Below are positions 1,238 to 63,740 of a stretch of DNA of 64,000 bases, in pieces. The notes under the pieces were generated by a model. The model saw nothing but the letters and a program-made list of their open reading frames with translations, did no database searches and was not told the DNA's origin. The DNA lies in contig CAWBFN010000003.1 in the NCBI GenBank assembly GCA_963788125.1, positions 184,450 to 248,449 on the forward strand, given 5' to 3'. A program made the position numbers and the translations under genes. The stretch comes from an uncultured Acidimicrobiaceae bacterium. Lineage in GTDB: Bacteria > Actinomycetota > Acidimicrobiia > Acidimicrobiales > RAAP-2. How positions within the stretch are numbered: the stretch's first letter is position 1; every line of letters begins with the position of its first letter.

Positions 1238-1248
1238 CACGGGGCTTT

Positions 1249-2532: not shown

Positions 2533-2542
2533 TCGACCGACC

Positions 2543-2971: not shown

Positions 2972-3108
2972 CGAACCCCCTCCCGATCAACTGCCGTGGA
3001 ATATACAAGGCACGAGGGGTACCTGCACGTTCCGGTAGCGTGCACCCATCGGGCGGGCCATCACGGGGATCCGCGTCACACGAGCGGGTTCCCGCTCCGG
3101 AGGACCAC

Positions 3109-3636: not shown

Positions 3637-3647
3637 CACGGACGACC

Positions 3648-3746
3648 CTCGGTCGGCCCCGTCCCCTCAGTCGGCCCCGTCCCTCAGTCGGCCCCGTCCC
3701 CTCGGTCGGCCCCGTCCCCTCAGTCGGCCCCGTCCCCTCAGTCGGC
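3648..3746. repeat. Tandem repeat CTC(A/G)GTCGGCCCCGTCCC, 5 copies (one 17 nt) plus a partial sixth
   Basis: Units at 3648-3665, 3666-3682, 3683-3700, 3701-3718, 3719-3736, and partial 3737-3746. The last partial unit contains the stop codon and last codons of the convergent TetR gene. Confidence 0.95.
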
Positions 3747-4361: not shown

Positions 4362-4429
4362 TCCCTCCCCACGCTACCCATCACCAACGGCCGGCCCGAC
4401 GGCCGCCCACCAACCCCGACGCTCGCCCA

Positions 4430-5506: not shown

Positions 5507-5522
5507 GGCACTGGTGGGCTAG

Positions 5523-6506
<984 letters not shown>

Positions 6507-48264: not shown

Positions 48265-48684
48265 CTAGCTCGATATGCGGTGGCGACGCGCAATGCGAAG
48301 ACCTCGATCGATCCAGGCGAGCGCAATCGCGATCATGCCAACAAGCAGATCGATCTGGAGTGCACTCGTCCAGGCATGGCAGTCAATCGCCGCGTCTCCT
48401 CGATTCAAGTGGATGACCAGCGGAGCTGTGTCATTTTTTCCTCGGATGTAGGTCTGGCCTGGCTGCGGTATGAGGCCCTTCGGTAGCTTAAAGTTTTTGG
48501 GCACGATTGCATGTATTCCGTTCGATCCTGACTCGTCCCCGCCGAGTGGTCGAGCAATCACGGTCCGTGAGAATCCGACACCAGCGAACCGAAGTCCGTT
48601 GACGGGTACCGCAGCAAACAGCTGGGTGACAAACCTCCTGGCGACGCGTTGCTTGCTCTTAGCTCTCGGCATCGACTCGTCCAT
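48265..48684 (-). CDS. Hypothetical protein with a C-terminal TM helix
   Basis: 139-aa ORF in line with the upstream DUF4405-like gene (26-nt overlap). No recognisable motif. Confidence 0.35.
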   Translation of the reverse strand: MDESMPRAKSKQRVARRFVTQLFAAVPVNGLRFAGVGFSRTVIARPLGGDESGSNGIHAIVPKNFKLPKGLIPQPGQTYIRGKNDTAPLVIHLNRGDAAIDCHAWTSALQIDLLVGMIAIALAWIDRGLRIARRHRISS

Positions 48685-49132
48685 TGGTTGGCCGACCGCC
48701 TAACGAGATGACGTTCGTAACCCAACGCCAATTGATCGCCACGTGTATCGCTATCAACCCAATTGCTACGTCAGCGGTCTTCTCGTGAATCTTTGTCCCG
48801 CTGCCACTCGTATCGAAGAAGTGAGTGCCAAGCGATGGCATGGCATAGCGGAAAATGAGTATGCCTGAGCCAACACACAGAACTAGGTCGAAACACAGCA
48901 GAAAGTTGCCGACGAACATCAAGCGTCGACGTCCCATCGTGGTAACTATCCGACGAGCCGTGCGCACCACCCAATCCCAATGGAGGGTGAGGTGAACGAG
49001 CAGTGTGAGACCGAACATTAATCCGAGCCATTCGTGCCATTCTTCGCCGGTGAGGTTCAGCGAAAACACCACTCCAAAGGCGACGAAGAGGATGAAATCG
49101 AAGATCAAATCGATACGCGAACGAAGCGACAA
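48659..49132 (-). CDS. DUF4405-like four-helix membrane protein (possible b-type cytochrome)
   Basis: Four hydrophobic helices with conserved His (EEWHEWLG, LLVHLTLHWDW, LIAIHVAINW). Confidence 0.5.
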   Translation of the reverse strand: MSLRSRIDLIFDFILFVAFGVVFSLNLTGEEWHEWLGLMFGLTLLVHLTLHWDWVVRTARRIVTTMGRRRLMFVGNFLLCFDLVLCVGSGILIFRYAMPSLGTHFFDTSGSGTKIHEKTADVAIGLIAIHVAINWRWVTNVISLGGRPTNGRVDAES

Positions 49133-49159: not shown

Positions 49160-49974
49160 TCACGCCCCCGATGCATGGAAGAGGTGGCCGATCGCGAATC
49201 CGAGCGCCGCGGCGCCGAGGCCGATGAGAACCATGCGAGTGCCCTGCTTCCACCAGGAGCCAACCCTGGTGAGCGCTTGGTATGCACCGACCCCAAAGAG
49301 CACGAGTCCACTCAAGATTACTGCGAGGACCAAGGCCGCGGAGCGCTGGAGAAAAACGAACGGAAGTAGAGGAACGAGGTGGCCAATCAACGTGGCCACG
49401 GTGACTATCACCGAGCTGCGCATGATGTCTTGGTTGGACACAGGCCGTAGGTGGCGCTCCTCCTCAAGGATCGTCTCGACCCATTTGTCTCGGTTCGCCG
49501 TGATCGTGGCAACCACTTCGTCAAGTAATGGGCCAGAGAACCCCTTACTTCGGTACAGTTCGGTTACTTCGCGGCACTCAAGGTCCGTTCATCACGAACC
49601 GCCTCTTCCTCGACGACGCGTTGAGCCTCGAAGAAATCACGATCTGCTGAGGTTGAGGTGAATCCGACCGCTCCCATTGAGATCGATTCGGTGATAGCCG
49701 CGGCAAAGCCAGTCGCCAGCAACACCGTCCGATCGCCTCCACCGGCGATAACGCCCAAGATGATCCCAAGGATGTTGACTAGTCCGTCTTGACCACCCAG
49801 AATGACATCGCGTAACCAATCGGTGCGGCCTGCATGGGCGTGACGTCGACCTTGTTTGGACAGACTGATTTCGGGCGGGCCTGGGGCAATCTGCTCCCCC
49901 GCACAAGCACGACCGAGTCGAGTGACGCGGTCCTGGCTGGCCTCAGGACCCGAAGTTGTATCTCCATCCGTCAC
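49160..49974 (-). pseudogene. VIT1/CCC1-family Fe/Mn transporter split by a 1-nt frame break near 49582-49597
   Basis: ORF 49564..49974 carries WLRDVILGGQDGLVNILGIILGV. The frame of ORF 49160..49516 extends upstream as REVTELYRSKGFSGPLLDEVVATITANRDKW..., then LIGHLVPLLPFVF. The two parts overlap in different frames. Confidence 0.75.
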
Positions 49975-50471: not shown

Positions 50472-51449
50472 TCAGTGCTGGCGAACTGGATGGGCGGTCA
50501 CCGCGCCAGGAGGTTGGATGAGGTGTGCCGGCGTCCGGCTGGCGCGCCATGAGCCAACCTTGGGCGCGACCGCAATAGCCAAGAGTACACCCAGACAAAG
50601 CGCGCCGACGAGGGCCCACTGCCGCGCTCCGGCGCCGCGAATCTGGCGACGGGTCCGCCTGTAGAAGTCTCGGGGTGCGAGGCGCGCCGTGTCGACGATA
50701 TGGCCGAGTACGTGCAGGGTCATGGCGGCAATCCACACGATGAAGGTGGCCTTGTGGAGAAACAAGAACTCGTGCCGCATGCTGGCCGGGCCGAGCAGCA
50801 GGGCGATGCCGGTGCCCACGACCGCTACGGTGAGTACGACGAGTAAGGGTCCGAGAAGCCTGAGGAGTGCGGGTGGAGGTCCCTTTCGCCGGTACTCGGG
50901 CGATCCGAGGTAGTAGCGAGCGAACCGCCATGTGGTGCTGCCGATCTTGAGAAGGATGGGGGGAACTAGCACCATGCCGATCACCACGTGCAGGGTGAGT
51001 AGCCTGCCGATCCGCAAGATAGTGAAGCCCTCAATCGCCAGGAGCACCAGGAGGACGGCGGCAGTCATTCCGGTCAATCGGGCATTGGCCTCCACACGGT
51101 CGTCGGCGGACTGGTCATCCGTAGCCACTCGATCCGGCGCCGGTGCGGGCGAGGACCCCAGACTCCCATGGGTGGCTGCCGCCTCCCATGCCGCAACCGG
51201 AGATCGTGGGAAGTCGGAGCGGTGGCGACGCGGCTCAGACGGGCGCCCGCTCGAACTCGCCACTCGTCGCACACCCCGAAAGGAACGGTCCTGCGCCGTC
51301 AACGCACGACCCCGATGATCGTCACCACTGCAACATACAAATGGAACCTGACGATCGGATGAAGCCATCTCTGGCGCCTGCTGCTGCGCCCATCCCTTCA
51401 CAAGCCCGTCGGGTCGACTCCTCCCGGCATGGCCCACGGATCGAACCAC
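50472..51449 (-). CDS. Polytopic membrane protein with conserved histidines; N-terminal limit uncertain
   Basis: Helices LTGMTAAVLLVLLAIEGFTIL, LTLHVVIGMVLVP, LLVVLTVAVVGTGIALLL and LHKATFIVWIAAMTLHVLGH. The first ~100 codons look non-coding. Confidence 0.5.
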   Translation of the reverse strand: MVRSVGHAGRSRPDGLVKGWAQQQAPEMASSDRQVPFVCCSGDDHRGRALTAQDRSFRGVRRVASSSGRPSEPRRHRSDFPRSPVAAWEAAATHGSLGSSPAPAPDRVATDDQSADDRVEANARLTGMTAAVLLVLLAIEGFTILRIGRLLTLHVVIGMVLVPPILLKIGSTTWRFARYYLGSPEYRRKGPPPALLRLLGPLLVVLTVAVVGTGIALLLGPASMRHEFLFLHKATFIVWIAAMTLHVLGHIVDTARLAPRDFYRRTRRQIRGAGARQWALVGALCLGVLLAIAVAPKVGSWRASRTPAHLIQPPGAVTAHPVRQH

Positions 51450-51734: not shown

Positions 51735-51779
51735 GTGCCGGTGCCGTGCAGCAGCCCGAGGGCCGCCGGGCACCGGCAC
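51735..51779. terminator. Strong stem-loop GTGCCGGTGCC...GGCACCGGCAC (11-bp stem) overlapping the FMN_bind gene stop
   Basis: Perfect 11-nt inverted repeat at 51735-51745 and 51769-51779. Confidence 0.4.
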
Positions 51780-52312
51780 TAGAGGCCGAGCTTCTTGAGC
51801 GCGGACTGCAGCGAGCTCTCGAAGGCGCCGCTGGTGAAGCTGGCGCCCGACACGCCTTGGATGTTGGCGCTCTGTGCCTGAAGGGCCTGCTGCTCGAGGA
51901 TCGGAATCGACTGCTGGTCGATCGACTGGGAGCGGAAGTCCCCCCCGTCGTCGAGGGAGGCGATCCCGACCTTGGTGATCCTGCTCCCCGAGGCGGTGAC
52001 CGATACGGACAAGGATCCGTAGGTGTAGTTGACGGTGTCGCCCGTCGCCGTCCTCGTCGCCGCCGGTGCCGTAGTGGGAGTCGTCGTCGAGGGCGTGGTC
52101 GACGAGGGGGTGGTCGCCGGGGTGGCACTGGGTGAGGAGGTCGTGGGCGATGTAGACGGTGGCGCACCGGCGGCGTTCGAAGGGGACGACCCCCCGGTTG
52201 AGGAGACCCCGGGCAGCGAGCCGGGCGTGAGGGATGCCGACCGGGCATGGAAGGTCAGCACACCGGCGAGCCCGGCAACCGTGGCGCCGATCACGATCGG
52301 TGCCCGTCTCAT
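51779..52312 (-). CDS. Membrane-anchored FMN_bind-domain protein with an ApbE flavinylation motif
   Basis: N-terminal anchor IVIGATVAGLAGVLTF, a Ser/Thr/Pro linker, and an FMN_bind domain with IQGVSGASFTS. SGAS is encoded at 51839-51850. Confidence 0.8.
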   Translation of the reverse strand: MRRAPIVIGATVAGLAGVLTFHARSASLTPGSLPGVSSTGGSSPSNAAGAPPSTSPTTSSPSATPATTPSSTTPSTTTPTTAPAATRTATGDTVNYTYGSLSVSVTASGSRITKVGIASLDDGGDFRSQSIDQQSIPILEQQALQAQSANIQGVSGASFTSGAFESSLQSALKKLGL

Positions 52313-52363
52313 GGGCTCTTGGTCTCGTCGGGGCGGACATGGGGGTGGGCTCGGTCCGGCACC

Positions 52364-53740
52364 CTAGAACGCGAAGGCTTCTTCGTGGATCCGCCCCGCT
52401 GGCAGCCCGATCCGGCGCGCCGCGGCGACGATGGCGTCGCTGAAGCCGTTCGGCCCGCAGACGAAGAGGTCCCGGTCGGCGAGGTCGGGCACCAGCCATC
52501 GCAGCAGCCGATCGTCGAGCTGCACCTCGCGGCGCGTGCCGATGACCTCGTGGTAGTGGCCGTGACGGTGCTCCACGAGTGACATGAGTTCGTCGCGGTG
52601 CACGATGTCCTCTGCGGCCGATGCCCGGACGATGAGCGTGACGTCAACCGATGCGGGCAGGTCCTCGAGCAGGGCGCGCAGGGGGGTGATGCCCACGCCC
52701 GCCCCGATCAGCGCCACCCGGTCATAGGTGCGCACGTGATGCGTGAAGGCGCCGTAGGGGCCTTCGATCGCCACGCGGGTCCCGGGCTTGAGTGCCCGGA
52801 TCGCCCGGCTCTGGTCGCCCGCCCCCTTGATGGTCATCCGGAGGTAGGGCGGCTGGGGGAGGGCGGAGAGGGAGTAGGGGTGGGCGTGCCACCACAGCTC
52901 CTTGGTGAGGAACCGCCACCGGAAGAACTGGCCGCCCGAGACGGCCAGGCGATCGAGCCGCCGCCCCGAGCAGATGACCGAGAAGATGCCCGGCGCCTCC
53001 TCACGCACCGTCGCCACCCGGAGCTGATGGCGCAGGCTGCGGACGACCGGTCCGACGAACCGGAACAGGATGACGACCCCTGCGGTCGAGGCCCAGACGG
53101 CGATCCACACCGCCTTGGTGAGCGGGTGGCCGACGAAGGACCCGCCGGTGGTGATCTGGTGGGCGAACGCCAGCGCCAGCCCGAGGTAGGTGTAGAGGTG
53201 GACGATCCACCAGGTCTCGTACTTGAGGTGCTTGCGAGCCAACTTGACCGAGGTGATCCCCGCCATCACCAAGAGGCAGAAGCCGACCGTGGCGGCCAGG
53301 AGGTCGGGATAGGAGGTGATGAAGAGCCAGAGCTGGCGGAGCACGCCCTCCTTCGCCGACTGCGCGTAGCCGAGCGTGATGAGCACGACGTGGGTGGCGA
53401 TCAGCGCCAGCGCCCACGGTGCGATCCGCCGGTGCCAACGGAGGAGCCGGTCCTGCCCGACCGCTCGCTCGAGCCAGGGCAGCCGGGCGATGAGCACCAG
53501 CATGACCAGGATCAGGTACGCGCCGCTGAACCCGGCCAGACGCCCCCCGGCGATGAGCCAACCCCCCGGGGCGGCCAGCGAACCACGGGTCTCGCCGGTG
53601 ACGACGAGACCGAGGGTGACGCCCAGGCCGAGACCGGCCAGTCCGGCCAGGGCGTCGGCGAACCCGGGCCTCGGTGCGTGTCCCGGACGGGGCCGGCGTC
53701 GGGCTGCTCTCGTCGTCGTGGCGTCCAGGTCGGAGACCAT
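52364..53740 (-). CDS. NOX/FRE-type ferric-reductase-like protein (di-heme TM domain + FAD + NAD(P)H domains)
   Basis: Six-helix N-terminal domain with His pairs, FAD motif HPYSLS and NAD(P)H motif GAGVGITPLRAL. Confidence 0.8.
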   Translation of the reverse strand: MVSDLDATTTRAARRRPRPGHAPRPGFADALAGLAGLGLGVTLGLVVTGETRGSLAAPGGWLIAGGRLAGFSGAYLILVMLVLIARLPWLERAVGQDRLLRWHRRIAPWALALIATHVVLITLGYAQSAKEGVLRQLWLFITSYPDLLAATVGFCLLVMAGITSVKLARKHLKYETWWIVHLYTYLGLALAFAHQITTGGSFVGHPLTKAVWIAVWASTAGVVILFRFVGPVVRSLRHQLRVATVREEAPGIFSVICSGRRLDRLAVSGGQFFRWRFLTKELWWHAHPYSLSALPQPPYLRMTIKGAGDQSRAIRALKPGTRVAIEGPYGAFTHHVRTYDRVALIGAGVGITPLRALLEDLPASVDVTLIVRASAAEDIVHRDELMSLVEHRHGHYHEVIGTRREVQLDDRLLRWLVPDLADRDLFVCGPNGFSDAIVAAARRIGLPAGRIHEEAFAF

Positions 53741-54035
53741 TACCGGGTGATTCTCGCGTGCCGCGGTGCGCAGTGGTGTGGCACGCTCTGTCCTGCCCGG
53801 TCGAGCCTCCGCCCTCGCACTCGACCGCTCGCCCTCATCGCGCCCTGCCCTCTCGGTTGCCCGCCTCGTGGCCGACCCACGCGTGTACGTGCCAGGGTAA
53901 GGGCCGGACCTTACGCTTTCATGAAGCGGGCGTGGGTGGCCGCCGGCCCGTCATCATTTCGTCAGTTTCGCGACGTACATTGGAGTAAATGGTTCCCATA
54001 CGCTGCTGTACCTGCCGTCGTCAGCGGCCAGCTCC

Positions 54036-54704
54036 ATGAGGCTGTTGGTGGCTGAGGACGACGCGTCTCTTCGGTCCGTGCTCGATCGGGGACTAAGAGA
54101 GAGCGGCTACGTAGTAGACACCGTGGCCGACGGGGATGCCGCCATCAAGTACCTCAGGGCGTACCAGTACGACGTGGCCATCCTGGACTGGCGCATGCCC
54201 AGGGCCAATGGCATCGAGGTTCTCGAGGTCGTTCGCCAGCAGCGCATTCGCACCCCGATCCTAATGCTGACCGCCCGGGACGCCCCGAGCGATCGCGTCA
54301 CGGGTCTCAACGTCGGCGCCGACGACTACCTGGTGAAGCCCTTTGACTTCGACGAACTGCTGGCCCGCCTCAGTGCGCTGCAGCGGCGACCAGCCCTGAC
54401 GGTCGACCCGATGCTTGCCTGCGGGGACCTGATCTTCAATCCGTCCACGAGAGAGATCACGGTGTCAGGGCAGGTGCTGCCGTTGACGATGACCGAGTTC
54501 GCGCTACTGGAACTGCTTCTCCGCCGAATGCCCGCCGTCGTCACACGCCGGACAATTGCCACGCAGGTCTGGGACGACGAGGCTGACGCAGTGGGGTCGA
54601 ACACCATCGATGTGCACATCGGTCGCCTACGGGCCAAGCTCACCGGGTCTCGGGCCCGGATTGAGACGGTCCGGGGCAGCGGATATCGGCTGGTAGCGGG
54701 GTGA
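54036..54704 (+). CDS. OmpR-family response regulator
   Basis: MRLLVAEDD, phospho-acceptor ILDWRMP and a winged-helix C-terminus (VRGSGYRL). Confidence 0.9.
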   Translation: MRLLVAEDDASLRSVLDRGLRESGYVVDTVADGDAAIKYLRAYQYDVAILDWRMPRANGIEVLEVVRQQRIRTPILMLTARDAPSDRVTGLNVGADDYLVKPFDFDELLARLSALQRRPALTVDPMLACGDLIFNPSTREITVSGQVLPLTMTEFALLELLLRRMPAVVTRRTIATQVWDDEADAVGSNTIDVHIGRLRAKLTGSRARIETVRGSGYRLVAG

Positions 54705-56014
54705 AGGGCCGGAAGCTGGGTAGATCACACGCCGTCAAGGTGGCGGTCGTGGCGACGCTGATCGTCATGGCCACCTACATCGCCGGGGTCCTCGTCTTCA
54801 ATCATGCGGTGCTGCACCGCCTCACGGCGCAAGCCGACGTGCGACTTTCCGAACGCCTTGCCGACGCAGGGAAACTGAGCATCGCCAGCCACGCATCGGC
54901 ATCACCCTCTCCCACCGGGGACCAGGACGACGACGATGCGCCCATCTTCGTCTGGAAGGTGAGCCATTCGGGGCCGACCACGGCACTCACGTCGGGTGCG
55001 CCGTCGTTCCCCCGCGTGACGCCGGCAAGCGGTGTGAGCACCGTTGACATCGGCGGGACACCGTTCCGGGTGCACACCGCGACCACGGGATCCGAGACCC
55101 TGGTTGCGGGGGAGAGCATCGCTCAGATCAACCGGGTTGGAAGCGCCTTGGTGACACCCGAGATCATCTTCGGCCTGGCTCTTCTCGTCGTGATGTTCGC
55201 CGGATCGCTCGTCATCGGATTGAAGGCGTCCGCTCCATTGGAGCTCGTGCGACGCCGGCAGGCGGAGTTCACCGCGGATGCTTCCCATGAGCTCCGGACC
55301 CCGCTCAGCGTGATTGAGGCCGAGGTGGATCTGGCGCTGCGCCGGCGCCGCGGTGAGGAGGAATACCGCGTCGTTCTCCAGCGTGTGGCGGGCGAAGGAC
55401 GACGGCTCCGGCGCATCGTGGACGACTTGCTGTGGCTGGCCCGCGCCGACGACGGGGGCATGGAGGTCGCGACGGGCACGACTGTCGACGTACGGGAGAT
55501 GGCGAGGACCTGTACCAATCGCTTTCAAGCGCTAGCCGCCACGCGGGGGGTGAGCCTTTCGTTCGACGAGGGCGAGCATGGCCCGCTCTTGCTACGCGCT
55601 GAGCCTGATTGGATCGACCGGCTGATCGGTGTCCTTGTCGATAACGCGTGTAAGTACGCCGGTGACGGCGGTCGGGTTGCGGTGCGGATCGGAACGGCCA
55701 GCAACCGGATCGTCCTCCAAATCGATGACAATGGGCCCGGGATACCGGTCGATCAGCGGGCGCTCATCATGGACCGCTTTCACCGGGCCGATGAGGACCA
55801 TCCGGGCACGGGTCTCGGCCTGGCCATCGCCGACTCGGTCGTCAGGGCGACCCTCGGCACGTGGCTCATCACCGAGTCGCCCGAGGGAGGCGCCCGCATG
55901 CAGGTTTCGTGGCGTAAGACCTCGTCCCGGCGCACAACCGGTCCGGCGACACAAGAGGAGTCCGGTATTCCCGAGGGAGTTTCGCTCCCGGATCCGGTCC
56001 GGGCGCGCCGGTGA
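54701..56014 (+). CDS. Sensor histidine kinase (two TM helices, HisKA + HATPase_c)
   Basis: H box ASHELRTPL, N box VDNACKYA and G boxes DDNGPGI / GTGLGLAI. GTGA overlap with the regulator gene. Confidence 0.9.
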   Translation: MKGRKLGRSHAVKVAVVATLIVMATYIAGVLVFNHAVLHRLTAQADVRLSERLADAGKLSIASHASASPSPTGDQDDDDAPIFVWKVSHSGPTTALTSGAPSFPRVTPASGVSTVDIGGTPFRVHTATTGSETLVAGESIAQINRVGSALVTPEIIFGLALLVVMFAGSLVIGLKASAPLELVRRRQAEFTADASHELRTPLSVIEAEVDLALRRRRGEEEYRVVLQRVAGEGRRLRRIVDDLLWLARADDGGMEVATGTTVDVREMARTCTNRFQALAATRGVSLSFDEGEHGPLLLRAEPDWIDRLIGVLVDNACKYAGDGGRVAVRIGTASNRIVLQIDDNGPGIPVDQRALIMDRFHRADEDHPGTGLGLAIADSVVRATLGTWLITESPEGGARMQVSWRKTSSRRTTGPATQEESGIPEGVSLPDPVRARR

Positions 56015-56095
56015 CGGAGGTTTAGAAACTTCTAAGTTGTTGTGGGCTGCTTTTTTGTCATGTGACCGTCAGGAACGCTCCGTAGCCTCCAACGC

Positions 56096-56395
56096 ATGGC
56101 ACCAAGGAGCCAACGTCCGGCACAGGACCACACCCGCTTAGCCCGCCTTCGTAGAGACGACGCCCTGAGCCGCCTCGCCACGATCAACCGCTCCATCGGG
56201 GCCGCAGCACTCGTGGCGACCGGGGTCTTGGGGCTCTATCTCGGTAAGGCCCTGCCGGGCCACCAAGCTTCGACCCAGAGCCAGTCCTCCCAGAGCCAGT
56301 CGACGGACTCCTCGGGATCGAACACGCTGACGCCACCCGCGTCGGCGCCCGTGCAGACCCAACAACCGGCTCCGGTCGTCTCGGGAGCGTCTTGA
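56096..56395 (+). CDS. 99-aa single-TM protein with a Ser/Gln-rich tail
   Basis: TM helix IGAAALVATGVLGLYLG. The stop overlaps the candidate TTG start of apbE. Confidence 0.45.
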   Translation: MAPRSQRPAQDHTRLARLRRDDALSRLATINRSIGAAALVATGVLGLYLGKALPGHQASTQSQSSQSQSTDSSGSNTLTPPASAPVQTQQPAPVVSGAS

Positions 56396-57366
56396 CTCTC
56401 TCTGTCACCGCGCCGTCGATGGACACATTAGGTATCTACCGAACACGAGGGCTCGGATGTCTGGCCGAGATCGTGCTGACCGACCCGGACTCGGTGGTCG
56501 GCAGCGTCGACATCGTCCACGAGGAACTCGACCGGATCGACCGCGCCGCCAGCCGATTCCGCCCTGACGCAGAGATCGCGTTGGTGCACCGGGCCGAGGG
56601 GCGTCCCATCAGCGTCAGCCCGTGCCTCTTCGAGGCCGTGGCGGTGGCGCTCCGTGTCGCCGTGGCCACCGGCGGCGCGGTCGATCCCACGGTGGGTGGT
56701 GCCTTGAACCGGCTCGGCTACGACCGGGACTTCGCCTCCATCGGCGCCGGAATCCCGGGGGACCTGCCCGAGACTGCTCCCGTGCCGGGCTGGCGGAGCG
56801 TCGAGCTGGACCAGGCCAGCCGGACGGTGCGGGTGCCGGCGGGCACAGTGATCGACCTGGGTTGCAGCGCCAAGGCGCTCACGGCAGACCGTATCGCCCA
56901 ACGGGTGGCCGAGACCTTTGGATGCGGCGCACTCGTCTCATTGGGAGGGGACATCTCCGTGGCCGGATCACCACCAACCGGGGGCTTTTGCACCGGCCTG
57001 GCCGATGTGAGCGGCGCAGCCGAGGCGTCCGAAACGGTGGCCATCACCTCGGGCGGGCTGGCCACCTCGGGCATCATGTCGAGGTGGTGGCGGGTGGGAC
57101 ACCACGTCGTCCACCACATCGTCGACCCGTCGACCGGGCTACCACCCGCGCGGGCGTGGCGCACGATCACGGTGGCGGCGGCGTCGTGCGTCGACGCCAA
57201 TGCCGCGTCGACCGCCGCCATGGTCAAGGGCCCCGGCGCGGAAGAGTGGCTGGCGGCACTCAACCTTCCGGCCCGGCTGGTCGCCCTAGACGGCAGCGTG
57301 GTGCGGGTCGCGGGATGGCCGGCCCCCGTCGCACCGACGCCCGAAGCGGTGGGGCCCGTCCGATGA
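56392..57366 (+). CDS. apbE: FAD:protein FMN transferase (ApbE/Ftp)
   Basis: DPTVGGALNRLGYDRDF, IDLGCSAKALTADR, VSLGGDISVAG and LATSG. ATG at 56419 is an alternative start. Confidence 0.85.
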   Translation: MTLSVTAPSMDTLGIYRTRGLGCLAEIVLTDPDSVVGSVDIVHEELDRIDRAASRFRPDAEIALVHRAEGRPISVSPCLFEAVAVALRVAVATGGAVDPTVGGALNRLGYDRDFASIGAGIPGDLPETAPVPGWRSVELDQASRTVRVPAGTVIDLGCSAKALTADRIAQRVAETFGCGALVSLGGDISVAGSPPTGGFCTGLADVSGAAEASETVAITSGGLATSGIMSRWWRVGHHVVHHIVDPSTGLPPARAWRTITVAAASCVDANAASTAAMVKGPGAEEWLAALNLPARLVALDGSVVRVAGWPAPVAPTPEAVGPVR

Positions 57367-58493
57367 CCGCCACCCTCGCTGTCGTCGTCCACAACGGGAC
57401 GGCCCTGTGGTACCTGACGCGCGCCACCGGTCTCGTCTCCCTGGTCTTGCTGTCGGCCACCGTCGTCCTCGGCATCGTCGCCTCGGTGGGTTGGACGGCG
57501 GCCCGATGGCCGAGGTTCCTCTCCCAGGCGGTCCACCGGAATCTCTCGCTGTTCTGCATCGTGCTGATCGCCGTCCATATCGTGACGACCGTCGCCGACG
57601 GGTTCGTCCCGATCGGCTACCTGGACGCGTTCGTGCCGCTTCTTTCGCCCTATCGTCCGCTGTGGATCGGTCTGGGGGCGCTGGCGTTCGACATGTTGCT
57701 GACCGTGGCCATCACCAGTGGACTGCGGGCACGCATCGGGGTCCGTACCTGGCGGGGGGTGCACTATCTGGCCTATGTCTGCTGGCCCATCGCCGTCCTG
57801 CACGGTCTGGGCAGCGGTACCGATGCGCGCCTGTCGGTCACGGTGCTCATCAACGTGCTGTGCATCGGGGCGGTGGTCGGGGCACTGGCCTGGCGGCTCA
57901 TCGCGGCCCGCGGCGTTCCGAGCACGCGCCGCCTGGCCGCCGCCGGCGCAGCGACCGTGCTGGTGATCGGCATCGGCGTCTTTGCTCTCGTCGGACCGCT
58001 CCAGCCCGGGTGGTCGAAGCGGGCGGGCACCTCCCCGGCGGTGCTGGCCGAGATCAACGCTCATTTCGCCGTGAAGTCGGCGGCCGCACCGATCGGCGCT
58101 GTGACCAGGACAGCGCCCTCGAGCGGCGCGGGGTCCTCGGCGGCGGGCATCCCTGCCGTCCCGTTCACGGCCAACGTGAACGGGACTGTTCAATCGTCGA
58201 GTCCGAACGCCGCCGGGGAGGTGGAGGTGGTCCTCTCCCTGCAGGTGCAGGGCTCGAGTGCTCCCCTGGTCGTCAAGTTGACGGGCACGGCGGTCAACGG
58301 AGGCGTGGCGATGTCGAGCAGCCAGGTCGTCTTCGGCGACGCCCAGGGCACGGTGACCGCACTCGACGGGTCCAGCGTCGGGGCCACGGTGCGCGGGCCG
58401 GGTGGACCGATCGATCTCCAGATGCTGCTGAACATCGACAAGTCCGCCCGCAGCGTCAGTGGAACCGTGAGCGGATCTTCGGGAGGACGATAG
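57363..58493 (+). CDS. Ferric-reductase-like (MsrQ/YedZ-type) di-heme membrane protein with a ~170-aa Ser/Gly/Val-rich C-terminal domain
   Basis: His-bearing helices (AVHRNLSLFCIVLIAVHIV, GVHYLAYVCWPIAVLHGL). ATGA overlap with apbE. The upstream part of ORF 56622..58493 is an artefact. Confidence 0.7.
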   Translation: MTATLAVVVHNGTALWYLTRATGLVSLVLLSATVVLGIVASVGWTAARWPRFLSQAVHRNLSLFCIVLIAVHIVTTVADGFVPIGYLDAFVPLLSPYRPLWIGLGALAFDMLLTVAITSGLRARIGVRTWRGVHYLAYVCWPIAVLHGLGSGTDARLSVTVLINVLCIGAVVGALAWRLIAARGVPSTRRLAAAGAATVLVIGIGVFALVGPLQPGWSKRAGTSPAVLAEINAHFAVKSAAAPIGAVTRTAPSSGAGSSAAGIPAVPFTANVNGTVQSSSPNAAGEVEVVLSLQVQGSSAPLVVKLTGTAVNGGVAMSSSQVVFGDAQGTVTALDGSSVGATVRGPGGPIDLQMLLNIDKSARSVSGTVSGSSGGR

Positions 58494-59800
58494 TGAGAGC
58501 CCACCTGGTCTCTTCGACCGCCACCCTGCCCCAGGCTCCTTCGTCCCCGCGCCTGCTGAGCGCCCTCGAGGCGCCCGACTCGGTGGTCGATCTGGAAAGG
58601 CACTTGGCGCACTGGGGGGCACTGCCGCTGCGCAGCGCCCGGTCGACGCTGCTCGACGAACTGGACTCCGGCGGCCTGCGCGGCCATGGAGGAGCCTGGT
58701 TCCCCGTCGGCAAGAAGTGGCGCGGCATACGTGACGGATCTCGCCGGCCCGTCGTGGTGGCCAACGGGTCCGAGTCAGAGCCGGCCAGCCGGAAGGACGC
58801 GTTCCTACTGACGCACTCGCCCCACCTGGTGCTCGACGGGGCGTCGCTCGCCGCCGCGACGCTCGACGCCCATCGGGTCGTGGTGTTCGTCCCGCTGCGT
58901 CACGTCGACAGCCTCCGCCGGTGCGTACAGGCACGGAACCGCTCGGGCATCGACCCAGTGAAGATCGAAGTCATCGCCGCCGCCGAGGCCTATCTCTCGG
59001 GGCAAGAGACCGCCGTCGTCCACGCCCTCAACGACGGCCCCGCCGTTCCCACCTTCGTCGGGCTGCAGTCCATCCGGGAGCGCGGCGTGCGGGGTCGTCC
59101 CACCCTGGTGCAGAACGTGGAGTCGCTCGCCCACGTGGCGATGATCAGCCGTTACGGCGGTCAATGGTTCCGCTCGGTGGGGACGGCGGACTCTCCGGGA
59201 ACGATGTTGGTCACCATCACCGGCCGGTGGGGCGAGCCGGTGGTCGTTGAGGCCCCGCTGGGCGTGGCCTTTCGTGATCTCCTGCACCTGGCGACCGAGG
59301 ACACCCGCCGGTACTGGGGGGCCCTGTTGGGCGGGTACGGCGGAGGGTGGTTACCGCCGTCGGTACTCCTCGAGGGGAATCTCAGCGAAGAGTGGGCCCG
59401 TCAGCAGCACTCCTCGCTCGGCGCCGGGGTTGTCGCCCTTCTCCCGCGCTCGTGCTGTCCAGTGGCCGAAGCGGCTCGGGTGGTCCGCTACATGGAGCAG
59501 CAGGGGGCGGGCCAGTGCGGTCCCTGCCGGTACGGTCTGGCCGACCTCGCCGGCCAATTCGAGCTTCTCGCCTTCCGTCCGGACTCGTTCCGCGGCCGCT
59601 TCCCGCCCATTCTCGAACTGTGCAATCTGATCGAAGGGAGGGGGGCGTGCCGGCACCCCGATGGCGTCACGCGCTTCGTCCGCACCGCCCTGACAGTCTT
59701 TCGGCACGACGTGGACGGGCACTTCCGCCGTGGTCCGTGCGACGCGGTCAGCCGACCGGCGTACCTGCCGACGCCATCCCCGAACGGATGGAGCCGGTGA
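58493..59800 (+). CDS. NuoF-like protein (NADH/FMN site + SLBB + Fe-S region), soluble
   Basis: GLRGHGGAWFPVGKKW, VVANGSESEPASRKDAF, PTLVQNVESLAHV and the Fe-S region GAGQCGPCRYG...GRGACRHPDG. GTG start overlaps the preceding TAG by 1 nt. Confidence 0.75.
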   Translation: MRAHLVSSTATLPQAPSSPRLLSALEAPDSVVDLERHLAHWGALPLRSARSTLLDELDSGGLRGHGGAWFPVGKKWRGIRDGSRRPVVVANGSESEPASRKDAFLLTHSPHLVLDGASLAAATLDAHRVVVFVPLRHVDSLRRCVQARNRSGIDPVKIEVIAAAEAYLSGQETAVVHALNDGPAVPTFVGLQSIRERGVRGRPTLVQNVESLAHVAMISRYGGQWFRSVGTADSPGTMLVTITGRWGEPVVVEAPLGVAFRDLLHLATEDTRRYWGALLGGYGGGWLPPSVLLEGNLSEEWARQQHSSLGAGVVALLPRSCCPVAEAARVVRYMEQQGAGQCGPCRYGLADLAGQFELLAFRPDSFRGRFPPILELCNLIEGRGACRHPDGVTRFVRTALTVFRHDVDGHFRRGPCDAVSRPAYLPTPSPNGWSR

Positions 59801-60105
59801 TGGAGGTTCGTACGGTCGGTGTTCAAGGTGTTCAAGGCGCACGGGTGAACGGCGCCCGGGTCAACGGCACCGGGGTCAACGGCGCAGCGCTGCCGCGAAG
59901 GCGCCTCACGCTGGTGGTCGACCCCACGTCGTGCGACGGGCGCGGCGTGTGCGCGGAGCTGTTCCCCGAGAGGGTCACGATGGACCACTGGGGTTATCCG
60001 ATCATTGACGACGAGGAGATCCCGCTGGTGCTGAGCGATAACGCCCGGCGGGCGGTCGCCGCGTGCCCGCGGCTGGCTCTCCACCTGGTGGAGCGCCGCC
60101 AATGA
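59800..60105 (+). CDS. Small single-cluster ferredoxin with a repeat-containing N-terminal extension
   Basis: VVDPTSCDGRGVCAELFPE...AVAACPRLAL. TGATG overlap with the NuoF-like gene. An internal start is possible. Confidence 0.65.
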   Translation: MEVRTVGVQGVQGARVNGARVNGTGVNGAALPRRRLTLVVDPTSCDGRGVCAELFPERVTMDHWGYPIIDDEEIPLVLSDNARRAVAACPRLALHLVERRQ

Positions 60106-61382
60106 ACCCGGACCTCGTAGACGACATCGACGGCGGGGTCGACAGCGACCTTTCCGCCCCCATCCGATCTCGCGGCTGTGACAGAGTGCGGCAGCCGGGG
60201 GACTCGCGTCCCCGGCGGCGACCCCAGCGAGCCCGACGGGTGTACCGGCGTCGTCGGATCAAGGCGGCCATCGCTCTGGTGCTGGCCGTCTTCATCATCT
60301 GGACCGGCGTCTCGCTCGGGGGCGCGCTGCTCAACCCGGCTCTCGGAAGTTCGTTCGCCTCCCGTTTCTCGGAGTGGGCCCGCGAGCACGGGGGTGCCTC
60401 CATCGTGAATTGGGTGGAAAAAGAGTGGTACAGCCACCATCCACCACCGATCGGCGGAAAGCCCCCGGCCGGGGCCATACGCGTTCCCCACAAGTCGCTG
60501 GCCCTGGTGGCATCCGGGCCCCCCCATCTGCCGCCACCCGTGCCGATCGTGCCCTTGGCCAGCCCCGCCATCTCCGGCGAGGGCCAGTGGTCGCAGGCCG
60601 GACGGTGGGTGGGGGGAGTCCCGGCGATCTACGAGACCACCCTCCGGCCTGACGCCGTCCACACCAGCTACGTGGTGGGCGTGGCGTGGATGGACACCAA
60701 GCTGTTGAAGGCGACGCTCTACTCGGGCAGCCAGATCCCCGGGGGCGGCCCCTACACCTACACGGCGCCGGTGCAGGCCGGAGCGGCCGACAGCCTGGTC
60801 GCCGCGTTCAATGCCGGCTTCCTGATGAGCGACGCCAACGGCGGGTACTACACGGAGGACAAGACGATTCTCCCTCTTCGGGCCGGCGCGGCGTCGTTCG
60901 TCATCTACCGGAACGGTTCGGCCACGGTCGGTGAGTGGGGCCGCGACGTCACCATGACCCCGAACGTCGTGTCTGTCCGCCAGAACCTCGATCTCCTGGT
61001 CGACGGGGGCAAGCCGGTTCCCGGCCTCAACGCCGCGGATACTACGCAGTGGGGTGACACCCTGGGCAATCAGGTCTACGTCTGGCGCTCGGGCATCGGG
61101 GTCACCACCGACGGTGCCCTCGTCTATGTCGGCGGACCGGGACTCAACGTCACCGACCTGGCCAATATCTTGGTCCGGGCGGGCGCCGTGCGGGCCATGG
61201 AGCTCGACATCAACACCGACTGGGTCAACTACTCGGTATACGACCCGGCCACGCCGAACGGGCCGGCGTCGGGAGCCAACGGCACCGAGCTGCTTCCCGG
61301 AATGACGGGATCCCCATCTCGGTACTTCCAGTCCTGGTGGGCTCGGGACTTCATCACGATGTCGACAGCCGTGAGGTCCTGA
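60102..61382 (+). CDS. Membrane-anchored phosphodiester glycosidase family (DUF2233/NAGPA-like) protein
   Basis: TM helix AAIALVLAVFIIWTGVSLGGALL. AAFNAGF..., WRSGIGVTTDGALVYVGG and AGAVRAMELD. ATGA overlap with the ferredoxin gene. Confidence 0.65.
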   Translation: MNPDLVDDIDGGVDSDLSAPIRSRGCDRVRQPGDSRPRRRPQRARRVYRRRRIKAAIALVLAVFIIWTGVSLGGALLNPALGSSFASRFSEWAREHGGASIVNWVEKEWYSHHPPPIGGKPPAGAIRVPHKSLALVASGPPHLPPPVPIVPLASPAISGEGQWSQAGRWVGGVPAIYETTLRPDAVHTSYVVGVAWMDTKLLKATLYSGSQIPGGGPYTYTAPVQAGAADSLVAAFNAGFLMSDANGGYYTEDKTILPLRAGAASFVIYRNGSATVGEWGRDVTMTPNVVSVRQNLDLLVDGGKPVPGLNAADTTQWGDTLGNQVYVWRSGIGVTTDGALVYVGGPGLNVTDLANILVRAGAVRAMELDINTDWVNYSVYDPATPNGPASGANGTELLPGMTGSPSRYFQSWWARDFITMSTAVRS

Positions 61383-61383
61383 G

Positions 61384-62352
61384 GTGAGCACGCGGGACGA
61401 AGCGGCCGAGGTGTTCGTGCCGGGAATTGGCGCCCTGAAGGGCGCGACGGGTCGGGCGGCGACCGCCACCCGGATCCTCACCGACGTCCTCGCCAGCATG
61501 CGCCCGCGGCAGTGGACAAAGAACGCACTGGTCTTCGTGGCCCCGGCAGCGGCGGGCGTCCTCGTTCACCGCATCGACCTCCTCCACACGCTGGCCACCT
61601 TCGGGATCTTCTGTGCGGCCGCCTCGGGTGTCTACCTGGTCAACGACCTCGTCGACGTTGGGGCCGATCGAAGCCATCCCGTCAAGCGCCATCGTCCGAT
61701 CGCCCGGGGCGCCGTCTCCCCGCGTCTCGCCGTGCCGATCGCTCTGGGACTCCTCGGTGGCGCCTTGGCGGCGTCGTGGTTCGTGGCGCGCCAGGATCTC
61801 GTCGTCCTCATTGCGGTCTACCTCGTCATAAGCTTCGCCTACACGCTCAGGTTGAAGCGCGAGCCGGTCATTGAGCTGGCGGCGGTGGCGTCGGGCTTTC
61901 TTCTGCGTGCCGTTGCGGGCGGCGTGGCCACCCACATCCCCCTGTCCAGCTGGTTCGTGGCGGTCGCTTCCTTCGGCGCGCTGTTCGTGGTCGTCGGCAA
62001 ACGCCTGGGGGAGTACCTTCGCCTGGGCGAGACGGCGGGCCAGCATCGCTATGTGCTCGAGGTCTACACGGCGTCGTTCCTGCGATCGGCCCTGACGCTG
62101 ACCGCGTCGGTCACGGTCACCGCATACTGCCTGTGGGCCTTCGAGAAGGCGGGACTGCTGTCGCATGCCGCGCACCACTACGTGTGGATTCAGCTCTCGG
62201 TTATCCCCATCATCGTAGGCGTCCTGCACATCCTGCGCCTGGTCGACGCCGGGCTCGTCGATGCGCCGGAAGAACTGGTCTTCCACGACCACCTCCTCCA
62301 GGGGCTCGGTGCGCTCTGGATCGGGCTGTTCGCCATCGGAATTTACGGGTGA
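61384..62352 (+). CDS. ubiA: Decaprenyl-phosphate phosphoribosyltransferase (UbiA prenyltransferase family)
   Basis: NDLVDVGADRSHPVKRHRPIARG. Polytopic. Followed by dprE1-dprE2. Confidence 0.8.
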   Translation: MSTRDEAAEVFVPGIGALKGATGRAATATRILTDVLASMRPRQWTKNALVFVAPAAAGVLVHRIDLLHTLATFGIFCAAASGVYLVNDLVDVGADRSHPVKRHRPIARGAVSPRLAVPIALGLLGGALAASWFVARQDLVVLIAVYLVISFAYTLRLKREPVIELAAVASGFLLRAVAGGVATHIPLSSWFVAVASFGALFVVVGKRLGEYLRLGETAGQHRYVLEVYTASFLRSALTLTASVTVTAYCLWAFEKAGLLSHAAHHYVWIQLSVIPIIVGVLHILRLVDAGLVDAPEELVFHDHLLQGLGALWIGLFAIGIYG

Positions 62353-63740
62353 CCCCCCAACGCCTGCTTACCGGCTGGGGACGCACGGCGCCCTCGGCCA
62401 GCCGGGTCGTGGTACCCGACGACCTCGGCGCACTGACTCGACTCTTGGTCAACGGCGATGGTGCACCGGGTGGGATGGCAGCGCCGCCCATGATCGCCCG
62501 CGGCCTGGGGCGGAGCTACGGCGACGCCGCTCAGTGCGCCGCCGGGGTGGTCATCGACACGTCGAGGCTCGATGCCATCGGACCCATCCATCCACAGACC
62601 GGGTCCGTCGAGGTGGGCGGCGGAGTGAGCCTGGACGCCCTTATCCGCGCCGCCATCCCATCGGGCTGGTTCATCCCGGTCTCGCCGGGGACCCGCCAGG
62701 TGACGGTGGGCGGGGCGATCGCCGCTGACGTCCACGGCAAGAACCACCACCGACACGGAAGCTTCTGCCGCCACGTGGCGTCCCTCACCTTGGTCACGCC
62801 GGCCGGGATCCGCACGATCGACCCCGAAGGCGATCCCGAGCTGTTCTGGGCCACCGCCGGTGGGATGGGGCTCACCGGTGTGGTGGTGGCGGCGACACTG
62901 CGGCTCCGCGGAGTGGAGACGACCTGGGTGGAGGTGGACACGGAACGGTTCGACGACCTCGACGACGCCATGTCCGTCATGCAGACCACCGACCACCTGT
63001 ACCCGTACTCCGTGGCGTGGGTGGACTGCAACCCCCATCACAGGAGTCTCGGTCGGTCGGTAATGACGAGGGGTGACCATGCCTCGGCCGATGCCCTGAC
63101 TCCCCGGCTGCGCGACAAACCACTCGCCCTGCCCGGCACCGCGCGTCTGCGGCTGCCCTTCCGCCCGCCGATTTCTCTGGTGGGCCGGAACACGGCGCGC
63201 GCCTTCAACGAACTGTGGTTCCGCAAGGCGCCGCGGCGCGAGTTCGGGGCACTCGTCCCGTTGACCACCTTCCTCCATCCCCTCGATGCCGTCGCCGACT
63301 GGAACCTGCTCTACGGCCCCAGGGGCTTCGTCCAGTACCAGTTCGTCGTGCCGCCGGATCAGGGCGACGTCGTCCACACGGCGATCTCCATGATGGCGGC
63401 CTCGCGAGTCCCCTCGACCATGGCCGTCCTCAAGCGGTTCGGGCGGGGCGATCCGGGCCCGCTGTCGTTCCCGATGGAGGGCTGGACTCTCGCCCTCGAC
63501 TTTCCCTTGGGACCGCCCGGACTCTCCGGCCTGCTCGACCGGTTGGACGAGCTGGTCGCCGCCGCCGGTGGGCGGGTGTACCTGGCCAAGGACGCCCGGC
63601 TGCGGCCGGAGGTGGTGGACGTCATGTATCCGAGGATCGGGGAGCTGGCGGCGGTACGGAGAGAAGTCGATCCCCTGGGCGTCCTCCGATCCGATCTCTC
63701 CCGGCGTCTCGGTATCGATCGACAAGAGTACGAATCATGA
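62349..63740 (+). CDS. dprE1: Decaprenylphosphoryl-beta-D-ribose 2'-oxidase (FAD)
   Basis: LTGWGRTAPS start, FAD-binding ARGLGRSYGD, GGAIAADVHGKNHH and C-terminal VYLAKD. GTGA overlap with ubiA. Confidence 0.85.
   Translation: MTPQRLLTGWGRTAPSASRVVVPDDLGALTRLLVNGDGAPGGMAAPPMIARGLGRSYGDAAQCAAGVVIDTSRLDAIGPIHPQTGSVEVGGGVSLDALIRAAIPSGWFIPVSPGTRQVTVGGAIAADVHGKNHHRHGSFCRHVASLTLVTPAGIRTIDPEGDPELFWATAGGMGLTGVVVAATLRLRGVETTWVEVDTERFDDLDDAMSVMQTTDHLYPYSVAWVDCNPHHRSLGRSVMTRGDHASADALTPRLRDKPLALPGTARLRLPFRPPISLVGRNTARAFNELWFRKAPRREFGALVPLTTFLHPLDAVADWNLLYGPRGFVQYQFVVPPDQGDVVHTAISMMAASRVPSTMAVLKRFGRGDPGPLSFPMEGWTLALDFPLGPPGLSGLLDRLDELVAAAGGRVYLAKDARLRPEVVDVMYPRIGELAAVRREVDPLGVLRSDLSRRLGIDRQEYES

Follow-up and report, generated by a model that had tools for sequence, protein, structure and literature searches.

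The closest described relatives of the gene cluster considered here are the MsrQ-like systems defined by Meheust et al. 2021 (PMC8238504). The accessible part of that paper, a Pfam-based census, counts 1,797 clusters, mostly actinobacterial, in which a PF01794 gene is associated with apbE or FMN_bind; 1,437 of these have a fused NAD-binding domain, 31 contain a NuoF-like PF10589 gene, and 153 contain VIT1. In these systems FMN_bind is treated as the flavinylated partner, and a signal peptide is required on either ApbE or its substrate. MsrQ-like proteins were modeled by Huang et al. 2024 (PMC10979944), where DUF4405 was also shown to bind heme. Here we analyze a 64,000-nucleotide stretch of DNA (the window) from an uncultured Acidimicrobiales bacterium (assembly GCA_963788125.1, contig CAWBFN010000003.1, positions 184,450 to 248,449). 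On its plus strand the window encodes a two-component system, a 99-residue single-pass membrane protein that we call p99, the FAD:protein FMN transferase ApbE, an MsrQ-like protein, a NuoF-like protein, and a small ferredoxin; on its minus strand are a NOX/FRE-type protein (FRE) and an FMN_bind protein. The system is of a known, computationally defined kind, and its conserved form differs in the flavin carrier, which is probably a domain-less tethered peptide rather than FMN_bind: outside the cell, the flavin is probably carried by p99. An original prediction made from the DNA sequence had passed over p99 as a single-transmembrane open reading frame (ORF), and it proves to be the conserved operon's own candidate flavin carrier.

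The census definition asks for a PF01794 gene within five genes of apbE or FMN_bind, and in the window the MsrQ-like gene directly follows ApbE, and FRE, which is of the fused-NAD-binding-domain type, lies by FMN_bind. The plus-strand module, from the regulator through the ferredoxin, resembles the NuoF-like subtype, as given in the accessible part of the census, in having PF01794 beside apbE, a NuoF-like PF10589 protein proposed as the point of NAD(P)H entry, a mostly actinobacterial distribution, and sometimes VIT1 nearby. It differs from that subtype in that the conserved module has no FMN_bind gene, its ApbE is leaderless, and p99, which has no Pfam domain, is the sole motif-bearing candidate. 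No signal peptide or lipobox is found on ApbE; the FMN_bind protein has an N-terminus (MRRAPIVIG..., start MRRAPIVIGATVAGLAGVL) that we judged by eye to be a hydrophobic anchor. The window does contain FMN_bind, the typical partner, yet 79 of 80 related genomes have no such gene within 10 kb of the NuoF-like gene. The claim that no characterized system combines a NuoF-like protein, a ferredoxin, and an MsrQ-like protein holds insofar as we found no experimental test of one in the searchable literature, but a NuoF-like gene together with MsrQ-like and ApbE genes is already on record in the 31 clusters of the accessible census. We found no mention of p99 in the accessible parts of Meheust et al. 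2021 (PMC8238504) or Huang et al. 2024 (PMC10979944), and a literature search for natural tethered or C-terminal flavinylation substrates in Actinobacteria returned nothing relevant.

Other known systems share parts of this design. E. coli MsrPQ with Fre, a two-component NOX-like system (Juillan-Binard 2017, as cited by Meheust et al. 2021), also combines a heme-b membrane protein of the ferric reductase superfamily with a separate soluble flavoprotein donor and an extracytoplasmic partner. The module, however, lacks an MsrP molybdoenzyme (there is no PF00174 gene at the locus, and no match to the MsrQ model in NCBIfam at E ≤ 0.01), has a NuoF-like protein and a ferredoxin as candidate donor in place of Fre, and adds a sixth helix and an outward-facing beta domain to the membrane protein, whose partner would be a small tethered peptide. 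Flavin-based extracellular electron transfer in Listeria likewise takes place in a Gram-positive host and uses an ApbE-type enzyme to load flavin mononucleotide (FMN) onto a membrane-tethered extracytoplasmic carrier that hands electrons on to the outside. There, however, the membrane step relies on quinone and EetAB rather than hemes, and FmnB is a secreted lipoprotein whereas the ApbE of the module is leaderless; Ndh2, EetA/B, PplA, and DmkA/B genes are absent from the Pfam assignments of genes at 45.4–63.7 kb, in keeping with the earlier observation that the locus contains no known terminal enzyme. NOX2/p22phox and bacterial NOX/FRE proteins have the same di-heme ferric-reductase domain with two histidine pairs and, in NOX2, a small membrane partner. 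FRE is a complete fusion of the NOX type, whereas in the module the dehydrogenase is split off and replaced by the unrelated NuoF-like protein and ferredoxin, and p99 has no sequence relation to p22phox. The closest precedents for the proposed flavin site are the FMN_red proteins, in which an extension at the C-terminus, itself unstructured, is naturally flavinylated and brings the flavin into a binding site (Huang et al. 2024, PMC10979944), and the Flavin-tag, in which a seven-residue motif works as an unstructured terminal tag (PMC9400968). Both place an [ST]GA[ST]-type motif on a disordered terminal segment, which ApbE recognizes without a folded domain. FMN_red has its own flavin-binding domain and the tag is artificial, whereas p99 has no folded domain, is anchored in the membrane, and ends with the motif, so that a flavin pocket would have to come in trans.

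The genes were identified by ORF listing together with Pfam and NCBIfam scans of the window proteins, which recovered all nine genes of the original prediction with their coordinates and motifs (Table 1). The NuoF-like protein was scanned against one genome per GTDB species, giving 134 relatives, and the loci of the best 80, all Acidimicrobiales, were searched, together with 10-kb flanks, by tblastn for each of the window proteins. In JGI metagenomes, distant NuoF-like proteins used as queries recovered at least 585 relatives, and 80 metagenome loci were inspected. Ten distant p99-family members were also viewed through their encoding contigs, and about 170 related loci were compared overall. 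Across the 80 Acidimicrobiales loci, tblastn matches were found for the MsrQ-like protein in 80, the ferredoxin in 79, ApbE in 75, the kinase in 62, p99 in 60 (67 by a search for the ORF and its tail), and the regulator in 57. The multi-pass membrane protein cytb325 and a NAGPA-like protein, the latter encoded downstream of the ferredoxin gene, matched in 38 loci each, and FRE and FMN_bind matched only in the nearest relative (locus L001). The order of the module genes in the window is kept in nearly every one of the 80 loci, and many of the absences are accounted for by contig ends or assembly problems. The same gene order is found in Thermoleophilia, Streptosporangiaceae, and other lineages (the distant metagenome-assembled genomes, or MAGs, include some labeled Solirubrobacteraceae and Streptosporangiaceae). 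The cluster is far beyond chance: its plus-strand order was seen again in all 80 species-level genomes and in other classes.

The distant loci define which genes belong to this arrangement at its core. A p99-like gene stands directly before the ferric-reductase gene or ApbE in all ten distant contexts (the ferric-reductase gene is visible in nine), and the NuoF-like and ferredoxin genes come next wherever the contig reaches that far. ApbE is present in five of the ten and absent from five, and a two-component system is present in six; the regulator is also syntenic in L081 and L084–L089. The gene 3' of the ferredoxin is either a cytb325 homolog (directly after it in L081, L084, L087, and L088) or a NAGPA-like gene (directly after it in L082 and L090). 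Among metagenome loci with a visible upstream region, the p99-like ORF is in place in 32 of 32, with ApbE in 14 and no ApbE in 18. The invariant core is thus p99, MsrQ-like, NuoF-like, and ferredoxin, and this core is often joined by ApbE, the two-component system, cytb325, and the NAGPA-like gene. The link between the NuoF-like protein and the ferredoxin, already suspected, is borne out by their adjacency in 79 of 80 loci and by a natural 493-residue fusion of a NuoF-like protein to a Fer4_15 ferredoxin in L082 (1578–3059), a lineage with neither ApbE nor a two-component system. Co-conservation likewise ties the two-component system to the plus-strand operon.

The FRE and FMN_bind genes behave differently. 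In the window FRE has the expected Pfam domains (PF01794 at 65 bits), the motifs HPYS at residue 287 and GAGVGITP at residue 346, and the histidine pairs H103/H117 and H181/H194, and FMN_bind has its flavinylation motif SGAS at residues 155–158 (candidate site Ser158), so both were correctly recognized from the start; FMN_bind has Gln at the position of the canonical Asp. No FRE or FMN_bind gene, even at E ≤ 1, was found within 10 kb of the NuoF-like gene in 79 of the 80 genomes, and the pair lies near the module in only two of the 80 metagenome loci, in differing arrangements. In all, FRE and FMN_bind adjoin the module in four loci only: the window, L001, L139, and L145. In L145 they lie beyond an inverted two-component system, and in L139 they are co-operonic with the module, downstream of the ferredoxin gene. 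The L139 operon (66–6098) starts with ApbE1, continues with MsrQ-like, NuoF-like, ferredoxin, FRE, and FMN_bind (site LISGATYTS), and ends with ApbE2; neither ApbE has a leader, and the two, which belong to different subfamilies, stand one at each candidate substrate position. Gene co-occurrence had been named beforehand as a test, and its outcome is divided, as the plus-strand operon is co-conserved and the FRE/FMN_bind pair is not. The locus thus splits into a conserved plus-strand module and an occasional, lineage-specific neighbor, FRE with FMN_bind. The recurrence of this pair by the module in L139 and L145 makes a loose functional affinity of the two units likely.

The p99 family is large, with 1,958 representatives at 50% identity, 418 of them at E ≤ 1e-10. 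Profile searches with p99 return only unnamed small proteins without a Pfam domain, and p99 itself has no Pfam match even at E ≤ 10, and so none to the known substrate folds (FMN_bind, NqrB/RnfD, DUF2271, DUF3570, Flavodoxin_4, and FMN_red). Its members share an arginine-rich N-terminus (R.RRD.aL.R...T), one transmembrane helix, a PG[HRK] motif, a variable linker, and a conserved tail, and the AlphaFold2 (AF2) model of p99 contains a helix at residues 10–52 (predicted local distance difference test score, pLDDT, 81–92) and coil elsewhere. The Lys/Arg count in 308 members is 4.6 for the N-side flank against 0.77 for the C-side flank, with an N-side excess in 297 of the 308, which places the N-terminus inside and the C-terminus outside. 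The linker between helix and tail is disordered, with a median of 57 residues (range 39–114) and 76% of its residues Ala, Ser, Pro, Thr, or Gly across the family; in the window, about 45 disordered residues follow the anchor helix. The His of the LPGH sequence after the helix was considered as a heme ligand, and this is unlikely, as other family members have R or K in its place.

The p99 tail is conserved. A p99-like ORF ending in ...[AP]PV[VT][ST]G[AS][ST]-stop lies just 5' of ApbE in 67 of about 72 loci with a visible ApbE start, its stop codon overlapping or abutting the ApbE start. Counting loci with and without ApbE, a p99-like ORF is found directly 5' of (ApbE-)MsrQ-like in 67 genome loci, 10 of 10 distant contexts, and 32 metagenome loci. 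When positions are numbered back from the last residue (0), Gly(-2), [ST](-3), and [ST](0) are each present in 65 of 65 Acidimicrobiales loci and Val(-5) in 61 of 65. Among retrieved family members the tail [ST]G[AGSTV][ST] occurs in 308 of 313 (172/174 and 136/139), against about 0.7% expected by chance from the composition of the linker. The window tail, SGAS, fits the flavinylation motif [S/T]-G-A-[S/T], in which the modified residue comes last, and its context VVSGAS resembles the site GVSGAS of the FMN_bind protein in the window. In five ApbE-positive loci (L132, L137, L150, L154, and L168) a p99 variant has a conserved ...HSVATT[ST][GA]S that is internal, so the constant feature is the Ser and not a free carboxylate; about 30 further residues (..VVTTTTHTVNGKTVVTQVR..Y.DN) follow this motif and resemble a small beta hairpin.

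Conservation of the tail is at the level of the peptide. The Gly(-2) codons GGA, GGC, GGG, and GGT are used 36, 27, 10, and 4 times, Ser(-3) is AGC or TCG/TCC, and the last residue uses nine codons; as the codons vary freely, selection acts on the peptide and not on the DNA. A Shine-Dalgarno site of the next gene as the source of the conservation was rejected on this variation at every position and because a Shine-Dalgarno-like core is present in only 18 of 77 loci. We also rejected the possibility that p99 and ApbE belong to a single gene, either broken by a frameshift or read through by programmed frameshifting, since ApbE is mostly in the -1 frame and in the +1 frame in L009, L017, and L021, gene callers report p99 as a protein of its own in 95 and 89 database clusters, and p99 occurs in clusters without ApbE. 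In L034 and L060 the p99 frame is broken or runs into the ApbE frame; with the p99 reading frame or transmembrane segment lost, these apparent fusions are most simply assembly indels. A correlation of tail type (SGA/SGS versus SGG) with ApbE, seen in the first ten contexts, was not upheld, as SGGS is found both with and without ApbE.

ApbE is the only one in the 64-kb window. It scores 158 bits against PF02424 (cut-off 25.6), and its GGDI, HHIVDPSTG, and DANAASTA segments align with the solved ApbE/FmnB structures TM1553 and FmnB. The score against the NCBIfam equivalog for the E. coli-type lipoprotein ApbE, PRK10461, is 55 bits versus a cut-off of 498, and there is no lipoprotein signal. The protein is leaderless, as its residue 37 already pairs with residue 41 of FmnB in the solved chain, which leaves no room for a signal peptide; no signal peptide was found on ApbE in any related locus, nor on ApbE2 of L139. 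In every locus that has ApbE, its gene comes immediately after p99 and separates p99 from the ferric-reductase gene, mostly with a stop/start codon overlap, and it is the translationally coupled neighbor of p99 in at least three lineage groups. The window ApbE is 46–53% identical to the p99-linked ApbEs of other lineages and 25% identical to L139 ApbE2, and p99-linked ApbEs share 46–59% identity across lineages versus 25–37% with L139 ApbE2; they form a subfamily of their own. A hidden FMN_bind domain or flavinylation motif was sought in the MsrQ-like and NuoF-like proteins and not found, and neither contains another conserved [ST]G[AGS][ST] motif. We therefore name p99 as the candidate ApbE substrate on the basis of its motif, its coupled ApbE neighbor, its place as the only motif-bearing protein of the operon, and the finding that a short unstructured motif is sufficient: seven residues suffice for ApbE, and replacing the Asp with Ala has only a minor effect (PMC12052999).

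The remaining core proteins would move electrons to such a site. The NuoF-like protein scores 97.8 bits for Complex1_51K and 45.3 bits for NADH_4Fe-4S, and its best PDB match is NuoF at 6e-42. It reaches 168.5 bits against the NuoF equivalog (cut-off 558.65), and no NuoE or other nuo genes are found near it. The first canonical Cys of the N3 cluster (GAGQCGPC) is missing and Cys322 offers an invariant alternative; Cys322, Cys342, and Cys345 are invariant in 86 of 86 homologs and Cys386 is present in 85 of 86. With four Cys conserved despite the replaced first ligand, an iron-sulfur cluster with a shifted ligand is likely. In the MsrQ-like protein, which has about 1,400 homologs, the histidine pairs H58/H72 and H134/H147 are invariant in 57 homologs and lie on helices 2 and 4 of six, with the N-terminus outside by the positive-inside rule. 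A path from the cytoplasm to the outside through di-heme ferric-reductase-type proteins, as first suggested, is plausible, and the gene identities were right. The C-terminal domain of the MsrQ-like protein, which had been left unassigned, is indeed present: a conserved GPL.PGW..R.GT segment after the sixth helix is followed by a predicted eight-stranded, extracytoplasmic beta domain (AF2 pLDDT 85–94). Foldseek shows weak resemblances of this domain to avidin, lipocalin, and Cyc15-type ligand-binding barrels and of the membrane part to STEAP2, and by analogy the beta domain may be a flavin pocket supplied in trans.

We propose the following route, to which we assign a probability of about 50%. 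Electrons from NAD(P)H would be taken up in the cytoplasm by the soluble NuoF-like flavo-iron-sulfur protein, handed to the small ferredoxin, and fed into the inner heme of the six-helix MsrQ-like protein, leaving through its outer heme. The acceptor outside would be FMN attached covalently to Ser99, the last residue of p99, which one helix would hold in the membrane; its flavin could dock in the outward beta domain of the MsrQ-like protein or swing to a more distant acceptor. The leaderless ApbE would attach the FMN, presumably in the cytoplasm before the unstructured tail is exported, and the adjacent two-component system would control the operon. Cytoplasmic flavinylation before export is suggested by the leaderless nature of this ApbE and likewise of the ApbE beside FMN_bind in L139; the order of events, flavinylation inside followed by export of the tail, is speculation. 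More tentatively still, p99 could represent a new class of ApbE substrate: a domain-less, membrane-anchored, disordered "flavin leash" with FMN on its last residue, loaded in the cytoplasm, where flavin adenine dinucleotide (FAD) is available, and threaded out, serving as the cofactor arm of the beta domain or as a mobile carrier. Export after loading would be possible since p99 is unfolded, and a linker of 39–114 residues could let the leash reach across the cell wall.

Several observations weigh against this proposal. ApbE is absent from five of the ten distant contexts and 18 of the 32 metagenome loci, where the tail is equally conserved, and flavinylation of p99 in these clusters would need an ApbE encoded elsewhere. 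The enzyme is leaderless while the p99 tail is predicted to lie outside, a problem that applies equally to the accepted FMN_bind substrate in L139. The commonest tail in the family is SGGS rather than SGA[ST], the canonical Asp(-6) is replaced, with Pro in 43 of 65 loci, and the five ApbE-positive loci with an internal motif have it in degenerate form. In the NuoF-like protein the FMN loop (GLRGHGGAWFP) reads GHGGAWFP for GRGGAGFP, and the NADH loop reads YLSGQE for YICGEE. Docking of the flavin in the beta domain is a guess, as a Foldseek search of the PDB with this domain gave nothing below E = 0.2. Finally, we found no experimental study of the NuoF-like variant or its components in the searchable literature.

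The main alternative, which would explain some of these observations, is that p99 supports or docks onto the MsrQ-like protein as a subunit, much as p22phox does for NOX2, with its tail serving as an unflavinylated binding peptide for the beta domain or another partner and ApbE serving a substrate elsewhere, such as FMN_bind. On such a view, p99 would be kept with an unchanged tail beside the MsrQ-like, NuoF-like, and ferredoxin genes in clusters that lack ApbE, the prevalence of SGGS and the absence of the canonical Asp would be of little consequence, and the position of the tail, nearly always at the extreme C-terminus, would be that expected for recognition of a terminal peptide. We nonetheless consider this explanation somewhat unlikely. 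It gives no reason for ApbE to be wedged always between p99 and the MsrQ-like gene, mostly with overlapping stop and start codons, or for the p99-linked ApbEs to be a separate subfamily when L139 has a second ApbE for its FMN_bind. No known substrate is encoded within 10 kb in 79 of 80 genomes, and the internal Ser in five loci argues that a free carboxylate is not essential.

A different question is what the module is for, and the surroundings of the window bear on it. The nearest relatives are uncultured Acidimicrobiales/Acidimicrobiaceae MAGs, and the names of their isolates (palsa, bog) suggest peat and soil. On the minus strand, 2–5 kb upstream of the module, lie VIT1 (49160–49974) and a gene (48659–49132) of the DUF4405 family, whose heme proteins are associated with flavinylation. 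The VIT1 gene is split by a 1-nt frameshift near 49560–49570, and both genes sit in a patch with a GC content of 0.56–0.59 versus about 0.70 around it; acquired DNA with a pseudogene, or else a mistake in the assembly, could account for this. The regulator falls below every NCBIfam equivalog cut-off (best RppA, 205 bits versus 250), and the models nearest to the kinase are of the heavy-metal type (CztS/SilS/CopS and RppB), all below cut-off. A search of 53741–54035 and 56015–56095 for sigma-70-like promoters or direct repeats found none. The module may be an assimilatory or dissimilatory metal reductase, for Fe(III) and possibly humics, with its product imported or consumed close by, rather than a general electron outlet, a role that would fit a flavinylated p99 as well as a docking p99 or a shared FMN_bind. 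The 153 MsrQ-like clusters linked to VIT1 iron transporters in the accessible census (PMC8238504), the VIT1 and DUF4405 genes of the window, a Fur and a Zip transporter gene about 5 kb upstream in L085 and L086, the resemblance of the kinase to heavy-metal sensor kinases, and the isolate names of the host MAGs, suggestive of peat and soil, all hint in this direction. Yet the neighboring metal-related genes and the kinase resemblance are not conserved features of the module, the window VIT1 is frameshifted in its low-GC patch, none of the 80 related loci yielded a VIT1, the kinase scores below cut-off, and siderophore or iron-uptake genes are not conserved with the module, and we regard a dedicated metal reductase as rather doubtful.

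The original prediction, in which FRE and the NuoF-like/ferredoxin/MsrQ-like proteins are parallel conduits that both reduce FMN_bind as the sole ApbE substrate and p99 is incidental, drew on the presence of FMN_bind (SGAS) and FRE beside the only ApbE in 64 kb and gains from their adjoining the module in L001, L139, and L145 in three arrangements, but it is now improbable, as the pair is missing within 10 kb in 79 of 80 genomes, all ten distant contexts, and 78 of 80 metagenome loci (FRE/FMN_bind are near the NuoF-like gene in only one genome and two metagenome loci), FMN_bind in L139 is accompanied by a separate ApbE2 that shares just 25% identity with the window ApbE, and it is p99, far more than FMN_bind, that is conserved with the module.

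The plus-strand genes of the module abut or overlap by 1–4 nt, and the chain does not end with the ferredoxin at 60105 as had been supposed: the NAGPA-like gene starts with an ATG at 60102, in an ATGA overlap with the ferredoxin stop codon. It is followed by a UbiA-family gene (a possible decaprenyl-phosphate phosphoribosyltransferase) and a gene for a DprE1-like FAD oxidase at 61384–63740 on the plus strand; with gaps of 0–1 nt, they extend a single gene chain that begins at 54036 and continues past 63740. Synteny of the UbiA gene is seen in 29 of the 80 Acidimicrobiales loci. On the other side of the locus, cytb325 has conserved histidines and a below-threshold similarity to cytochrome b561/ferric reductase, and may add another heme-bearing subunit or connect the module to quinones.

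Table 1. Features of the electron-transfer locus and its immediate neighbors, in window coordinates.
Feature	Position	Strand	Basis
cytb325, multi-pass membrane protein	50472–51449	-	Ni_hydr_CYTB 7e-5, Ferric_reduct 1e-3, both below cut-off
FMN_bind protein, anchored, 177 aa	51779–52312	-	PF04205, 25.9 bits
FRE, NOX/FRE-type, 458 aa	52364–53740	-	Ferric_reduct + FAD_binding_8 + NAD_binding_1
Divergent intergenic region, 295 bp	53741–54035	.	ORF coordinates
OmpR-type response regulator	54036–54704	+	Response_reg + Trans_reg_C
Sensor histidine kinase	54701–56014	+	HisKA + HATPase_c; 4-nt overlap with regulator gene
p99, 99-aa single-pass protein	56096–56395	+	No Pfam or NCBIfam match
p99 C-terminal tail PVVSGAS-COOH (residues 93–99)	56372–56392	+	ApbE-type flavinylation motif, candidate FMN site Ser99
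ApbE, FAD:protein FMN transferase, leaderless	56392–57366	+	PF02424, 158 bits; TTGA start/stop overlap with p99
MsrQ-like protein, di-heme ferric-reductase domain, 376 aa	57363–58493	+	Ferric_reduct (PF01794), 33 bits
MsrQ-like predicted extracytoplasmic beta domain, residues ~268–373	58164–58481	+	AF2 model
NuoF-like soluble flavo-iron-sulfur protein, 435 aa	58493–59800	+	Complex1_51K + NADH_4Fe-4S
Small single-cluster ferredoxin, 101 aa, three Cys (C-x5-C ... CP)	59800–60105	+	Fer4_15, 6.5e-11
NAGPA-like protein (phosphodiester glycosidase family), membrane-anchored	60102–61382	+	PF09992, 1.6e-8

Uncultured Actinomycetota of soil and peat commonly have this module, as seen from the 134 species-level and at least 585 metagenome relatives of the NuoF-like protein, the approximately 1,400 MsrQ-like homologs, and the approximately 1,960 p99 clusters, and Pfam-based censuses overlook p99, the most conserved partner of the system. 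If p99 is flavinylated as we propose, the substrate rule for ApbE, so far one of folded flavin-binding domains, would widen to include a bare tethered peptide, MsrQ-like systems of an entire class would gain a candidate extracytoplasmic electron acceptor, and one could test directly how actinobacterial ApbEs that lack a leader gain access to exported substrates. Should p99 further act as a flavin leash, this would explain extracytoplasmic flavinylation in monoderm actinobacteria without export of FAD and would establish where electrons go in a module that hundreds of soil lineages share. A flavinylated p99 would also suggest how Actinobacteria abundant in soil might deliver electrons from NAD(P)H to acceptors outside the cell.

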